From the IMG/VR virus record IMGVR_UViG_2548876962_000006, positions 1-16,814 of that record: DNA of 16,814 nt; one strand, given 5' to 3'. Positions 1-4,583 of the stretch are shown one piece after another (the first letter of the stretch is position 1; each line of letters begins with the position of its first letter). The notes under the pieces are model-generated. The model did no database searches. It was not told where the DNA came from and worked only from the letters and a program-made list of their open reading frames with translations. The DNA is from a virus (taxonomy: Duplodnaviria; Heunggongvirae; Uroviricota; Caudoviricetes). A program made the translations under genes and the position numbers.

Positions 1-519
1 TCCATTCCGGCTGGTTTTAAAGCACTGGCTGACATGAGTCCGTTTGAATCCCTGCTGATTGTGGATTTAGGCGGAACCACGCTGGATGTGGCAAAGGTTC
101 AGGGACAACTGGCAGGTATCAGCCAGGTGTTTTGCGATCCACACGTAGGCGTTTCTCTGATGGCCAATGCCGTACTGTCGGTGATGGCCACTAACGGTAT
201 GCGCACCAGTCACCACATCGCCAATACCATTATCGAACATCGCCATGATGAAGCCTGGCTGCGCCAGCACATCCACAATGACGCACATTACAACAGCCTG
301 ATGGCGGTTATTCGTGAAAAGGAAGAAACACTGAAACAACGTGTACTCCGCGCGCTGGCGAGCTTTTCGGGTTACGGGCGGGTGATGGTTGTCGGTGGAG
401 GGGCGGAGATTGTGGCACCCGCTGTCCGCGAAGCCTGCGGAGTTAATGCGACTTTTATCGCGGACGGGGTGCCACAGTTTGCTCTGGTTAATGGGCTGTA
501 CGCAATGGACAAGGAGTAA
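1..519 (+). CDS. parM: ParM/StbA-like actin-type plasmid segregation ATPase, C-terminal part (5' end lies outside the window)
   Basis: Frame 1 is open from base 1 to the TAA at 517-519. The translation contains actin-fold motifs (LLIVDLGGTTLDVA; RVMVVGGGAEIV) and a C-terminus (FALVNGLYAM) resembling R1 ParM. A parR-like gene follows 4 bp downstream. Confidence 0.7.
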   Translation, partial: SIPAGFKALADMSPFESLLIVDLGGTTLDVAKVQGQLAGISQVFCDPHVGVSLMANAVLSVMATNGMRTSHHIANTIIEHRHDEAWLRQHIHNDAHYNSLMAVIREKEETLKQRVLRALASFSGYGRVMVVGGGAEIVAPAVREACGVNATFIADGVPQFALVNGLYAMDKE

Positions 520-523
520 ACCA

Positions 524-835
524 ATGACGACACCAACCAGACGGATAAGTTTCTATCTGAAGCCTGCAGCCGTCAAGAACGAAAGCGAAGCATGCGCCTG
601 GCTGGACAGCCTTACACCAGAAGCCCGCAAAAGCGGCCAGCGTGTGGCTTTTCTGGCCGGGCTGGCACTTCTGAAGACGAATCCGGCAGAGGCTTACCGG
701 CTGGCTGCATGGGCTGACGATGAGCCGTTACCCGTGACACAGGTCAGAGAGGAAAAAACCAAAGCACAGGCTGCGCCAGAGGCGCAGCCAACCAGCCAGA
801 TGGCCGCAAACATCAGAGCGTTATTCCCCGAATAA
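524..835 (+). CDS. parR: ParR-like centromere-binding adaptor (ribbon-helix-helix)
   Basis: ATG at 524 preceded by AAGGAG at 511-516. The N-terminus (RRISFYLKP...AWLDSLTPEARKSGQRVAFLAGLALL) and C-terminus (IRALFPE) resemble R1 ParR as recalled. The upstream part of the 389-835 ORF overlaps parM and is not used. Confidence 0.65.
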   Translation: MTTPTRRISFYLKPAAVKNESEACAWLDSLTPEARKSGQRVAFLAGLALLKTNPAEAYRLAAWADDEPLPVTQVREEKTKAQAAPEAQPTSQMAANIRALFPE

Positions 836-846
836 GGAGACGTGAT

Positions 847-885
847 AAGGCATGACGGACAGTTTTATTTAGTAAGTCATGCCTT
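847..885. repeat. Perfect 10-bp inverted repeat AAGGCATGAC-N19-GTCATGCCTT between parR and the next gene
   Basis: Read directly: 847-856 aaggcatgac and 876-885 gtcatgcctt are exact reverse complements, separated by an AT-rich 19-bp spacer. Candidate operator or RNA stem-loop; there is no U-tract after it. Confidence 0.6.
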
Positions 886-909
886 CAGAACAGTAAGCAT
901 GAGGCATCC

Positions 910-1110
910 ATGATGAAAAGACTGACATTACTTTTTTCGCTGTTTTTCATTCCGTTGGCGCATTCAACCACGCCGAACTGCGCAACGGAAAAGAGCAACA
1001 CCGTCATCGTTGTCCAGTGCGATGACGGCACGGTGACAATCACCGACTCAAGTAAGGGAAGCGTCCTGGTCTGTCGCAAAGGACACCTCTGTCAGCACAC
1101 TGAACTTTGA
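910..1110 (+). CDS. Small secreted cysteine-rich protein of unknown function (signal peptide plus about 47-aa mature part with 4 Cys)
   Basis: GAGG at 901-904 five nt before ATG 910. N-terminus [19 protein letters not shown] is a typical Sec signal peptide. The mature part has four Cys (C-x17-C...C-x5-C), consistent with a disulfide-bonded periplasmic mini-protein. No family recognised. Confidence 0.5.
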
Positions 1111-1121
1111 AGGAGAAAGAG

Positions 1122-1454
1122 ATGACCACATCGCATTCTGCAATTACCGAGGAAAAAGCCTTCCACATACTCGAACGACTGGAGGCGCTCGCCACAGAGG
1201 AAGAAATCGCCCCGGAGAAACTGGTTGAGTGCTGCCGTGTGATGTTGCGCCGCAAGAACGACATCGCGAGGCTGACATCCTACACATCATCCGTATCTAT
1301 CAGGCAAACGCTTTATTGCAGCTTCTGCAAGAAACCACAGCACGCCATCAAAAAGTTAATTGCCGGGGACGACGTTTTCATCTGCGACGAGTGTGTGGAA
1401 GTGTGCAACAGCGTTATCCGAGAAGAACAAGGAACGCAGGGAGCAGGAAGATGA
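1122..1454 (+). CDS. Stand-alone protein with a C-terminal ClpX-type C4 zinc-binding domain (ZBD)
   Basis: ATG 1122 preceded by AGGAG at 1111-1115. The C-terminal segment [40 protein letters not shown] aligns residue-by-residue with the E. coli ClpX N-domain ([40 protein letters not shown], recalled from memory) including all four Zn-ligand Cys. There is no AAA+ module. The N-terminal 55 aa are acidic/helical and unrecognised. Confidence 0.7.
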
Positions 1455-1520
1455 ATGACGAATTTGACGGCTTTTAATTTTATCGGGGCGCACTGTCGCC
1501 CCCGCACTAAGGAAAACACG

Positions 1521-2045
1521 ATGAAAAAAGATGAATATCTGTTCATGACGAACGCGTTGCGGGTTGGTCTGGCCCCCTGCCCTGTCTCCGTGGAGTCTGT
1601 TGTCGGGAACACGATTTTTCGAACACTGCGCGATCGCGTCTCCGTGAAAATGATTCATCCGCTACCCAAAACCGCCAGCATGATCTATCTGCCGTTGCCC
1701 GACGCGATCCGGCTCATGCGTTCGCTGAAATTTGCGATTTGGATGCAGACACAACTCAACAAAGCAGTACAAAACACCTTCGTTAAGAGATTGATGCCAG
1801 AGCTTGCCGCCAGATGCGCAAAATGCACCAGACCAGCACTTCACTTTGATCTGTCGTTGATTCAACGCGCTGCCGAATCCGAGTTCTACCGACTTACCTT
1901 TATCCGTCATGCGCGACATGAGGACAAAGAGATGCGCCGCCTTTTGAATCTGTTTGTTTTTTCCGTTCGACGCACACGCGTTCAGGTCAATCGCATGATG
2001 CAGGCACAGGAAGAGCTGACGCAACACAAAGGAGTCATCCAATGA
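1521..2045 (+). CDS. Hypothetical basic protein (174 aa), unknown function
   Basis: ATG 1521 preceded by AAGGA at 1509-1513. Its stop overlaps the next start (ATGA at 2042-2045), indicating translational coupling. An alternative start at ATG 1455 (overlapping the upstream stop) is possible. Arg/Lys-rich; no family recognised. Confidence 0.5.
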   Translation: MKKDEYLFMTNALRVGLAPCPVSVESVVGNTIFRTLRDRVSVKMIHPLPKTASMIYLPLPDAIRLMRSLKFAIWMQTQLNKAVQNTFVKRLMPELAARCAKCTRPALHFDLSLIQRAAESEFYRLTFIRHARHEDKEMRRLLNLFVFSVRRTRVQVNRMMQAQEELTQHKGVIQ

Positions 2046-2581
2046 GCAAGATTGACTATCAGGCACTGCGTGAAGCGGCAGAGCAGGCAATACATGATGA
2101 CTGGGGATATGATGCGGATATTTTCCATGAACAGGTGACACCATCGGGTGTGCTGGCGTTGCTGGATGAGAATGAAAGAATGTGCTGCAACCTCATCGCC
2201 CGCAATGGTGAGATTGAAGGGCTTCGAAGGCGGGCTGCTGAACTGGAAAAAATCGCCACGGACTATGCACTTAAATTCCAGAAAGCACAGGATGCACTAA
2301 AGTACGCCGTGTTAATGCGTAACAAAGCGCTTTCTTTTGAAGAGGCGATGCAATGTACAAAAGAAAAATACGAGGGAGTCATAAAAAAACTTGCCAAAAA
2401 CGAGCATCCAGTCTCACCAATACCAAAACCAGAGAATGACAAATTTACCGTATCGATCCCGGACCCAAAGGAGTATTTCATTAACGGCGTATTCCAGCCT
2501 TTGCGATACGAACGGGATGTTGAGCAAGCCATCATAAAGGCAGGCGGAAAAGTCTCGTGGCAGGAGACAGAAGATAATTAG
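2042..2581 (+). CDS. ead/Ea22-like family protein (lambdoid-phage accessory protein)
   Basis: N-terminus MSKIDYQALREAAEQA and the following coiled-coil segment (LLDENERM...GEIEGLRRRAAELEK) are typical of the Ea22-like family found in lambdoid prophage early-left regions. Start is coupled to the upstream gene. Confidence 0.6.
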   Translation: MSKIDYQALREAAEQAIHDDWGYDADIFHEQVTPSGVLALLDENERMCCNLIARNGEIEGLRRRAAELEKIATDYALKFQKAQDALKYAVLMRNKALSFEEAMQCTKEKYEGVIKKLAKNEHPVSPIPKPENDKFTVSIPDPKEYFINGVFQPLRYERDVEQAIIKAGGKVSWQETEDN

Positions 2582-2594
2582 ATCCACGACAAAC

Positions 2595-2620
2595 CAGGGC
2601 GATAATCACACATCGCCCTG
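2595..2620 (+). terminator. GC-rich hairpin (9-bp stem, 8-nt loop) 14 nt after the Ea22-like stop; possible terminator or RNA-processing structure
   Basis: CAGGGCGAT (2595-2603) pairs with ATCGCCCTG (2612-2620). No immediate U-tract; the nearest T-run is at 2647-2654, so intrinsic-terminator status is uncertain. Confidence 0.3.
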
Positions 2621-2621
2621 C

Positions 2622-2648
2622 TGCACAATAGTGCACAAATTTGCACAA
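2622..2648. promoter_or_regulatory. Three direct TGCACAA repeats with exact 10-bp phasing (iteron- or operator-like); a fourth copy at 2714-2720
   Basis: Read directly: TGCACAA at 2622-2628, 2632-2638 and 2642-2648, plus 2714-2720. Nearby are GGATCCGT direct repeats (2692-2699, 2703-2710) and the 14-bp palindrome AAAAACGCGTTTTT (2721-2734). Confidence 0.5.
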
Positions 2649-2962
2649 TTTTTTTGAACGACTTTTTACCCTTCCGGCCCGCGTGGCGGCTGGATCCGTA
2701 AAGGATCCGTGCGTGCACAAAAAAACGCGTTTTTGTTGCGCGCGGGTGCCGGGGGAACAGCCCGCAATTTGGGGTCTGAAAGCACCCTCAGAAAGCGCCA
2801 GAAATGCGGCTGATTGCGCCCCTGACGCGATGTTTTTTGTTGGGGTATCGTGTGTATTGCGCGATCTCATTCGCACTCTGTGGCTTGTTCTGGATGTGTG
2901 GTGCAGTCCGCGCCATTGAGGAGCGTGACAGGATACAGATGACATCAACAGAAGGAGGAGCC

Positions 2963-3466
2963 GTGGGACACTTTGAGGATTTGTGTTGCATTAACCGGGA
3001 TGTGGAAAGAAAGCGTTATCGGGCCACTGAAATCTTACGGGATGAGGCCCGTAGCCTGGTCGGGTTTTATGAGGACTGGCTGGGGCTTCCGTCGCTGTAC
3101 CGCGAACACGAACACGGCGAGTCGCGGCCTTATGTGGAAACAGGCCTGCCCTGTCGGAACGCGGAAGACTTTCGCGCCTGTTCTGTTAATCAAATCCCTG
3201 TCGCAGCAGACGGTATTTTCCATGTGGCCGTGCGTACATGGATTGAATCACTGTCGGGTATTGAGCCGGTTGATATTGTTGTTGCGTTTGAGTTGCATTC
3301 GGTGAGCGAAGCTCGCACTACGCTGAAAGTCACCGTGGAGGATGATGTTTCTGTTCGCGTGAGCATTACTGCGCCGGAAGACAGGAAATGGACGGGGGTG
3401 ACGAAAAGCATGAAAAGACACATCGCCGTCCGTCTGAAAAAACGCGCTCCGTTTGCACTTCGTTAA
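2963..3466 (+). CDS. Hypothetical protein (about 167 aa), unknown function, last gene before the Q stop and cos region
   Basis: Open frame 2804-3466. Best start by RBS is GTG 2963 (AAGGAGGAG at 2952-2960); alternatives are ATG 2939 and ATG 2804, the latter adding a hydrophobic Cys-rich N-terminus. No family recognised. Confidence 0.45.
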   Translation: MGHFEDLCCINRDVERKRYRATEILRDEARSLVGFYEDWLGLPSLYREHEHGESRPYVETGLPCRNAEDFRACSVNQIPVAADGIFHVAVRTWIESLSGIEPVDIVVAFELHSVSEARTTLKVTVEDDVSVRVSITAPEDRKWTGVTKSMKRHIAVRLKKRAPFALR

Positions 3467-3482
3467 GCCGGAGCTGGTGAGT

Positions 3483-3507
3483 CGGGGCATAAATTTTTTA
3501 TGCCCCG
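3483..3507. terminator. Perfect 11-bp-stem hairpin (CGGGGCATAAA-TTT-TTTATGCCCCG) between convergent genes; candidate bidirectional terminator and/or cos-associated structure
   Basis: Read directly. It lies in the 67-bp gap between the plus-strand gene ending 3466 and the minus-strand Q gene ending 3534. No flanking U-tract on either strand. Confidence 0.35.
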
Positions 3508-3533
3508 GCGAAGCAGCAGACAAGCGCAGCGCG

Positions 3534-4583
3534 TCAGGATGTGGGCGGGGCATCCAGCAGTGCGTAAGGGTTAAAGCGGATCACCTCCTCACCCAGCCAG
3601 TCATTAACGTGCTTCATCGCCTCCATCACCGGCATCAGTTCGTTGATCGCAAACACTCTTGCCGCCTTCTCCACATCACCAAATGACCCCTGTCCGCTGG
3701 GCATTGCGCCCATCAGTTGTGGTGGTACGCGGTGAGCAGCCAGCACATCATCGCGGGAGGCCGCCTTGACGTTCATAAACTCATCCCGGGCGGTGATCTG
3801 CTGGAACGGCAGGATTTGCACACCGTCCTTCCCGCCGTTCGGTGCCTGGAGCAGCAGGTTTTTGAATGCCCCACCGCCTCTTGCACCCTGCAACGCTCTT
3901 TCGAGCGCCTGCATGCTTTCGCGGTCAACCTGTGCTGCTCCCACGTAAATAATGCAGCCTGCGTGTGAACCGTTGTCATAGTAGAGTTTGCGAAAACGAT
4001 CTGCCGAATGCGACAGACTGGCAGACAACAGGCCGCCGAGATATTCCGGCATTCCGTACATCTCCTGGTTGATGTCAGGGTTCAGCACATGACAGACGCG
4101 CCCCTGACGGAACTCGTGGTCCTGCTCGCCCGTCTGTACAAACCAGTACACATCCGGCTCAACACCACGACGGACGTATTTTGCCAGGGCATGGCGCAGT
4201 TCCAGTTTTCCGCCCAGCCTGTTGGTGCGCAGTTCAAGAAACGCATTCCCGAAGACAAACCAGTCCAGCGCAAAGGCGGAGAACGCCTGCCGGGACAGCA
4301 GCCGGTGCGGAATGAAGCAGCCCAGAATGGCATTTCGTTTGAAGTACAGCGCCGACTGATGCCACGAGGTCTGCCGGGATGCCCGCGCCAGCCCGTACCA
4401 GTCAACGGGTGTTTCGTAGTACCTGCCGTTACTCAGGCAGTATGCGTTATCCAGCAGGTCGAGCGCGTGCGCATCGTAAGGGCCATCGAACGAGAAAGCG
4501 CTTAGCGACGGCTGGCGGCGCAGTGCCTCTGCCAGCTCCACGCCGTCATCGCGGCGGGTATATTTTCGTTTTTGTTTTTTCAT
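3534..4583 (-). CDS. Q: Portal protein (P2 gpQ homologue)
   Basis: 349-aa ORF, size and position as for P2 Q (about 344 aa), immediately downstream of and overlapping the terminase gene; start codon overlaps the P stop. Confidence 0.9.
   Translation of the reverse strand: MKKQKRKYTRRDDGVELAEALRRQPSLSAFSFDGPYDAHALDLLDNAYCLSNGRYYETPVDWYGLARASRQTSWHQSALYFKRNAILGCFIPHRLLSRQAFSAFALDWFVFGNAFLELRTNRLGGKLELRHALAKYVRRGVEPDVYWFVQTGEQDHEFRQGRVCHVLNPDINQEMYGMPEYLGGLLSASLSHSADRFRKLYYDNGSHAGCIIYVGAAQVDRESMQALERALQGARGGGAFKNLLLQAPNGGKDGVQILPFQQITARDEFMNVKAASRDDVLAAHRVPPQLMGAMPSGQGSFGDVEKAARVFAINELMPVMEAMKHVNDWLGEEVIRFNPYALLDAPPTS

Follow-up and report, generated by a model that had tools for sequence, protein, structure and literature searches.

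The cargo locus of the prophage

The stretch of DNA analyzed here, called the window below, is 16,814 nucleotides long and is an E. coli prophage of the P88-like kind (Xuanwuvirus, P2-like). Its variable cargo locus has parM-stbB on one side and the portal gene on the other, and the gene under study, which encodes a small protein with a ClpX-type zinc-binding domain (ZBD), is in P88-like prophages the first cargo gene past parM-stbB (Table 1). The presence of plasmid-type partition genes in an integrated P2-like prophage is typical of P88-like Xuanwuvirus genomes.

Table 1. Features of the cargo locus and of the hairpin-ZBD gene (positions in the window)
Feature	Position	Strand	Details
parM 3' part and stbB, plasmid-type partition	34..835	+	Pfam ParM_N 4e-69, Plasmid_stab_B 2e-23
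66-aa ORF, signal-peptide-like N-terminus	910..1110	+	PHROG 20764, E=2.5e-11; stop 11 nt before the ATG of the ZBD gene
Shine-Dalgarno-like AAGGAG	1108..1113	+	8 nt 5' of the ATG; read from the sequence
Hairpin-ZBD protein, CDS	1122..1454	+	110 aa plus stop; ATG start; PHROG 6797; PGAP 'ClpX C4-type zinc finger protein'
N-terminal helical hairpin	1149..1280	+	aa 10-53 (helices 10-26, 31-53); AlphaFold2 model, hairpin profile search, dN/dS
Linker, low-confidence and fast-evolving	1281..1310	+	aa 54-63; pLDDT ~53, dN/dS
ClpX-type zinc-binding domain	1311..1427	+	aa 64-102; Pfam, PDB, structure superposition
Cys codons of the ZBD	1317-1319, 1326-1328, 1383-1385, 1392-1394	+	
174-aa hypothetical protein	1521..2045	+	downstream of the ZBD gene; not its fixed partner
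Ead/Ea22-like protein	2042..2581	+	Pfam PF13935, E=9e-14; recurs beside the ZBD gene in phage-plasmids
Stem-loop	2595-2620		scored as a minus-strand terminator-like site by the scan
P2-type portal gene, end of the cargo locus	3534..4583	-	

As for transcription, the promoter scan of positions 700-3700 gave no sigma-70-like promoter, and the Rfam scan of the window returned nothing; judging from the gene order, transcripts of the upstream parM-stbB probably extend through the ZBD gene and other accessory genes of the 'ea' type. The adjoining downstream ORF, which encodes the 174-aa hypothetical protein, is unrelated to ClpX and had no Pfam, PHROG or PADLOC match. Likewise, neither the ZBD protein nor four neighboring ORFs matched a defence system in PADLOC-DB v2 at E<=0.01, and location in a variable cargo site of P2-like prophages is not by itself evidence of defence.

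The cargo region matches that of two other E. coli prophages, UMNF18 and P13-6, with 99.5% identity in an alignment that covers 74% of the query (850-3550); the P13-6 copy of the ZBD gene has 100% identity, and UMNF18 has the same 333-nt gene, present in RefSeq as 'ClpX C4-type zinc finger protein'. The RefSeq record of UMNF18 also places a hypothetical protein on the opposite strand of the DNA that corresponds to 910-1110 (window ~885-1079, minus strand); the plus-strand reading of this segment appears the more likely of the two. Regarding the far end of the cargo locus (window 2600-3530), it is ~470 bp longer than in the UMNF18 and P13-6 prophages, and the extra DNA holds an ORF at 2804-3466 (220 aa as listed) whose residues 56-218 match PHROG 5091 with E=1e-30; because the match spans these residues only, the true start of this ORF is probably an internal Met. 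The Br_167 prophage has a 167-aa hypothetical protein (3160-3663 of the retrieved Br_167 piece) at the equivalent position.

Identity of the zinc-binding domain

The C-terminal part of the protein has a likeness to the ZBD of ClpX that is far beyond chance. The Pfam family zf-C4_ClpX (PF06689) was recovered on residues 65-101 with 59.4 bits against a curated gathering cutoff of 27 bits (E=3.2e-16, profile positions 2-39 of 39), and a phmmer search of the PDB returned the E. coli ClpX ZBD chains 2ds5 and 1ovx with E~1e-15 across residues 62-102. The lack of a significant profile match, which the original prediction had named as a refuting outcome, is thus not what the search gave. The original prediction had put the identity of the C-terminal 40 residues to the E. 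coli domain at about 70%, a fair but slightly generous figure: a hand count on the phmmer alignment gave 27 of 41 residues (66%), the core has 24 of 37, and the value across 38 structurally aligned residues is 66-68%. The same prediction had all four zinc-ligand cysteines conserved, and they are: Cys66, Cys69, Cys88 and Cys91 pair with the ClpX zinc ligands Cys14, 17, 36 and 39, and the CxxC...CxxC spacing is that of ClpX, with 18 residues separating the pairs. The phage domain would bind zinc and dimerize as the ClpX domain does.

It was also correct that no AAA+ ATPase module is present, since the reading frame closes after residue 110, and since the NCBIfam ClpX equivalog (TIGR00382 / NF003745), whose cutoff is 371 bits, gave a score of 48 bits and aligned at model positions 7-51 only. 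Compared with E. coli ClpX, the phage protein shares the C4 site, its spacing and, of the two ligand-pocket residues, F16 unchanged and I46 as V; it differs in being without the motor, in having the ZBD at the C-terminus instead of the N-terminus, in the helical hairpin that precedes it, and in the turn of the beta-hairpin, which reads GDD in the phage ZBD and GPS in ClpX.

As for the N-terminal part, the description of it as a new, acidic domain held for the first term, the domain being unrelated to ClpX, and much less for the second: with a net charge of -2 it is mildly acidic, helix 1 having -3 and helix 2 having +3. The Pfam, PHROG and NCBIfam scans of the protein returned no motif for DNA binding or for another function. 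The 110-aa product is confirmed as a stand-alone, phage-borne ClpX-type ZBD joined to an unrelated N-terminal domain.

Predicted structure, conservation and selection

An AlphaFold2 single-chain model, built on a 19-sequence alignment of the family, had a mean pLDDT of 78. It consists of a helical hairpin (pLDDT ~80-86), the poorly defined linker, and a beta-hairpin plus helix at residues 65-107, with pLDDT of 80-91 in the ZBD. The modeled ZBD superposed on the crystal ZBDs 2ds5, 2ds7 and 2ds8, the last being the complex of the E. coli ZBD with the SspB tail, at 0.6-0.7 Å across 38 residues, a value that refers to a predicted structure. The hairpin had only sub-threshold noise in Pfam (RIF2, DUF4461) and no relative below E=0.2 in a profile search of PDB sequences, and Foldseek searches of the PDB and BFVD matched the ZBD part only.

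In helix 2, the segment MLRRK (window 1242-1256, residues 41-45) belongs to a motif L-R-R-K/E in which Arg43 is invariant in all three subfamilies described below. It loosely resembles the ZBD-binding motifs of adaptors (SspB tail LRVVK; LKxh consensus, PMC7226468); this likeness may be a coincidence, and the motif is predicted to be helical and not extended.

The pattern of selection was estimated by pairwise Nei-Gojobori dN/dS among nine alleles, and the figures are rough, the regions having only 10-45 codons. The dN/dS of the hairpin was 0.15-0.25 relative to the window allele, and this part is under purifying selection and is the most constrained of the protein; dN/dS was 0.2-0.8 in the ZBD, which is probably under purifying selection as well. 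The linker had values of 0.9-4, ~1 or above among the pairs listed, so it is without purifying selection, and its length differs between subfamilies in the alignment. The picture is nevertheless clear, with two modules under constraint and a freely evolving linker between them.

Residue conservation was scored over 47 family members and is given in ClpX numbering. The zinc ligands, G30 and I35 are invariant; S15, F16, K19, E38, V40 and C43 are conserved in at least 98% (F16 in 98%), and position 46 is I or V in 94%, V being the residue of the window protein. The core of the beta-hairpin, KLIAG, is largely kept, and positions 18, 23, 25, 31, 32, 34, 42 and 45 vary freely. Overall, the ZBDs of the family have 18-30 of 37 residues identical to ClpX.

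The family and its genomic contexts

The protein belongs to PHROG 6797 (E=1.6e-49, residues 1-104 on profile positions 1-104 of 107), a family of Enterobacterales phages with no assigned function. The gene is thus already catalogued, both under this family and with a domain-based PGAP name. A profile made of the hairpin alone retrieved just ZBD-fused proteins or truncated fragments, and the organisms named for these matches were Escherichia, Salmonella and Yersinia only. Many database copies, including those of P88 and D6, are named 'carboxylate--amine ligase', for which the sequence gives no support; newer PGAP records have 'ClpX C4-type zinc finger protein' in its place. No functional study of this protein, or of any stand-alone phage ZBD protein, was found by full-text searches of the literature.

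Three subfamilies can be distinguished, namely the window type, the P88/UTI89 type and the Yersinia type. The first two are 47% identical by tblastn, and 43% in the hairpin; the ZBD of the P88/UTI89 type has 30 of 37 or 31 of 40 residues in common with E. coli ClpX, and the Yersinia type has a one-residue insertion in the beta-hairpin of the ZBD. In phage P88, the P88/UTI89 type is found at the equivalent position. In the Br_167 prophage, the same type lies upstream of a 79%-identical copy of the gene that follows the ZBD gene in the window, and because the two alleles occupy the same position upstream of the same neighbor, they replace each other in one slot. The shared slot and neighbor suggest one function common to both diverged subfamilies.

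The ZBD gene is also an accessory gene of P1-like and SSU5-like phage-plasmids; the window type occurs in the P1-like phage D6 and in phage-plasmids of ~90-110 kb, in a setting of runs of small accessory genes (Ead/Ea22, DUF4752, EaA-like). A sensitive DNA search found the window type in 194 of 5426 complete E. coli genomes, at full length in 110 of them, and about half of all its places are on plasmids. The P88-type sister allele is present in 112 complete E. coli genomes, and both alleles together are present in ~4-6%.

What lies downstream varies with the element: the 174-aa hypothetical protein in the window and in Br_167, a 176-aa hypothetical in pECAZ162_2, DUF4752 in D6, Ead/Ea22 in others, and further hypotheticals of 104 aa in UTI89 and 112 aa in P88, at least five unrelated or differently named kinds overall. 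Between elements, no similarity was detectable among the immediate neighbors. A fixed partner, or a type II toxin-antitoxin pair, was rejected because the downstream gene differs between elements.

ZBD modules outside ClpX and the origin of the phage copy

An exhaustive HMMER search gave ~10,000 representative proteins with a ClpX-type ZBD. The top matches were not ClpX; they were small proteins, encoded in a variety of metagenomes, in which 2-6 ZBDs follow one another in tandem, and thousands of non-ClpX bacterial proteins reuse the domain. Other small metagenomic proteins have a ZBD plus a second CxxC…CxxC module. To our knowledge, neither the tandem-ZBD architecture nor the ZBD with a second CxxC…CxxC module has a described function.

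Phages of other hosts have the domain as well. The Pseudomonas D3-like phage phi1 encodes a 65-aa ZBD-only protein (ALY08156) adjoining a replication gene; in this D3-like lambdoid phage, the ZBD gene (1495-1692) is between the 'replication protein P' gene and the NinG region, a placement that would suit the protection of a ClpXP-labile replication initiator. Pseudomonas phage PP9W2 has a 65-aa ZBD protein named 'Clp protease', and the Caulobacter phage Cr30, a lytic T4-like phage, has a ZBD ORF of ~70 aa. For the latter, the annotated gp170 (41 aa) appears truncated, the frame being open upstream and containing a complete ClpX-type ZBD (~1507-1725 of the retrieved Cr30 piece); this ZBD has an 'LCM' motif that is also in P0171, a metagenomic ClpX-like fragment of alphaproteobacterial type, an origin that is our own assignment. 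These ZBD-only phage proteins (phi1, PP9W2, Cr30; PHROG 12435, 5259) are likewise stand-alone ClpX-type ZBDs, and they are uncharacterized too; they differ from the window protein in being without the hairpin and in having a ZBD just 40-50% identical to it. The stand-alone ZBD is thus a recurrent module of phages and bacteria and not a one-off.

Regarding the origin of the window copy, its ZBD has 27 of 40 residues identical to E. coli ClpX versus 29 of 40 to P0171, so host-specific mimicry by the window allele is unsupported. A recent capture of host clpX DNA was rejected as well: no more than 194 of the 5426 genomes gave a match in the sensitive DNA search, the matches listed were all ZBD-protein genes, and host clpX is for this reason not detectably similar at the DNA level.

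Possible functions of the hairpin-ZBD protein

In ClpX, the ZBD docks SspB, RssB and trigger factor, along with the substrates lambda O, MuA and FtsZ (PMC5415555, PMC7804408), in agreement with the docking role for SspB, lambda O and MuA on which the original prediction was built. The pocket formed by F16 and I46 is needed for stimulation by trigger factor, and it coincides in part with the lambda O site and with the surface to which SspB and RssB bind (PMC7804408).

The best explanation, put forward tentatively and somewhat short of probable, is that the phage protein mimics the N-terminal domain of ClpX as a homodimeric decoy, acting in trans and titrating adaptors or substrates. Its C-terminal ZBD would bind zinc and homodimerize like that of ClpX, the flanking helical hairpins would probably strengthen this dimer or provide it with another surface for binding, and the free dimer would offer the hydrophobic pocket of ClpX to adaptors (SspB tail, RssB, UmuD) and, likewise, to N-domain-dependent substrates (lambda O, MuA). 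Titration of these ligands would lead to a selective damping of N-domain-dependent ClpXP proteolysis or remodelling, and direct pore-mediated degradation, for example of ssrA-tagged proteins, would be spared. The phage might profit from the stabilization of a labile phage or host protein, or from blocking protease-triggered defences; if the gene is expressed in the lysogen, the outcome may instead be the exclusion of ClpX-dependent phages such as Mu.

Several observations are in favor of a decoy. The identity of the ZBD is strong by profile, by PDB search and by superposition; the zinc ligands are kept in all of the 47 members, and the two pocket positions in nearly all; the gene is maintained, as its dN/dS values and its recurrence in E. 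coli genomes indicate; and ZBD-only proteins exist independently in the phi1 and Cr30 phages. Published biochemistry is consistent with the mechanism (PMC7226468, PMC7804408), and RexB is a phage precedent: this lambda protein blocks the degradation of lambda O, Phd and MazE by ClpXP/ClpAP (PMC11077077).

The nearest counterpart is a laboratory construct, the isolated ClpX ZBD, which is likewise free and motorless and which, added in trans, inhibits the RssB-mediated, and hence adaptor-mediated, degradation of sigma-S by ClpXP in vitro (PMC7226468). The phage protein differs from it in being natural and selected, in having an extra domain and in that its inhibitory activity is putative. An earlier study, by Wojtyra et al. 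(2003), reportedly employed the isolated ClpX ZBD as a competitor as well.

Phage proteins that modulate host proteases include lambda CIII (FtsH), T4 PinA and T7 Gp4.5 (both Lon), and SPO1 Gp53 (ClpCP). With these and with RexB, the hairpin-ZBD protein would share the proposed logic, that of a small phage protein changing the targets of a host AAA+ protease; it has no sequence or structure kinship with them, none of them is known to copy a domain of the protease that it acts on, and for the phage ZBD the function is an inferred one. In keeping with this, Pfam and PHROG returned ZBD-related families only, with no membership in the inhibitor families of CIII, RexB, PinA or Gp4.5.

The main weakness of the decoy explanation is the hairpin, which is the most constrained part of the protein and yet would be superfluous for a pure ZBD decoy. 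In addition, the surface of the ZBD varies considerably within the family, and the comparison with P0171 points to no host-specific mimicry. Interference with ClpXP pathways could in addition be detrimental to induction, as repressor and LexA fragments are removed by this protease. Finally, since ZBD modules occur in thousands of non-ClpX proteins, the domain may have uses unrelated to ClpX.

This last point leads to a fairly unlikely alternative, in which the ZBD serves as a compact zinc-stabilized dimerization or peptide-binding module of a small phage regulator with a role unrelated to ClpXP, akin to other small zinc-finger proteins that are encoded in the accessory regions of lambdoid phages and tip the lysis-lysogeny balance or influence the physiology of the host. 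The reuse of the ZBD in very many small proteins, tandem arrays included, the location of the gene among Ead/Ea22-type accessory genes, and a variable surface that has no host-specific similarity are all as such a role would have it; on the other hand, conservation in the family goes beyond the zinc site alone and includes the ligand pocket (F16, I/V46), the P88/UTI89 allele has 30 of 37 or 31 of 40 ZBD residues identical to E. coli ClpX, and the protein had no DNA-binding or other functional motif.

The constraint on the hairpin is accommodated if the protein is an adaptor or hijacker, with the hairpin as bait for a specific phage or host protein and the ZBD as the link to ClpXP, either bridged by a dimeric adaptor such as SspB or associated with the ClpX N-domains; the bound target would then be degraded or shielded. 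Since the hairpin is constrained and, truncated fragments aside, is always fused to the ZBD, the two modules presumably work together, and in the engineered CLIPPER degraders tethering a target to the ClpX ZBD suffices for its degradation (PMC12373786). Even so, this explanation is unlikely: the hairpin has no recognizable homologue or partner, the varying neighbors leave no co-inherited target evident, and the ZBD acts in docking as the receptor instead of the anchor peptide, so that contact with ClpX would require a further, bridging step.

The original prediction had also considered that the phage ZBD heterodimerizes with that of ClpX, and such a poison subunit would upset the trimer-of-dimers arrangement of the N-domains on the hexamer. 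The same fold and the high sequence identity would permit it. The ZBD of ClpX, in work by Wojtyra and by Donaldson from 2003, was reportedly dimeric at all times and very stable, the tether in cis keeping its local concentration high; for this reason a separately translated phage ZBD should mostly homodimerize, and heterodimerization is highly improbable. As for a dead fragment of a captured clpX 5' end, the resemblance to the first ~50 codons of clpX is set against a ribosome-binding site of its own, a novel conserved N-terminal domain, purifying selection, host clpX that is not detectably similar at the DNA level, and three diverged subfamilies that persist across genera, and the selection and distribution data effectively refute it.

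Significance for phage biology

ClpXP sets the stability of lambda O, MuA, the Mu repressor, RpoS (via RssB), UmuD', antitoxins such as Phd, and HsdR (restriction alleviation). It is conceivable, if rather doubtful, that temperate phages of several bacterial lineages repeatedly took the substrate- and adaptor-docking domain of ClpX and used it as a free protein, that in the enterobacterial phages this was coupled to a helical targeting domain, and that the result is a natural, selective switch turning off or re-routing the adaptor- and N-domain-dependent branch of ClpXP. If this is true, the affected branch would include RpoS/RssB, SspB, UmuD, lambda O-like initiators and the Mu transpososome, while the phage develops or in the lysogenic state. 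Modulators of host AAA+ proteases have been described from phages; one built from the protease's own domain would be new if the decoy explanation is right, and it would be the first viral inhibitor made from a domain of its target protease, with the engineered ZBD-directed degraders as its man-made equivalent.

Testing the hypothesis would cost little, given that E. coli ClpXP reagents and assays exist, and if it is true, the gene would be a genetic tool separating the N-domain-dependent from the pore-dependent functions of ClpXP in vivo. If the protein is not a decoy, the family nonetheless represents an accessory gene that is widespread in phages and partly mislabeled as 'carboxylate--amine ligase' in public records. 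In conclusion, a free ZBD that occurs in nature would be a sign of specific tuning, by phages, of the adaptor-dependent branch of ClpXP.
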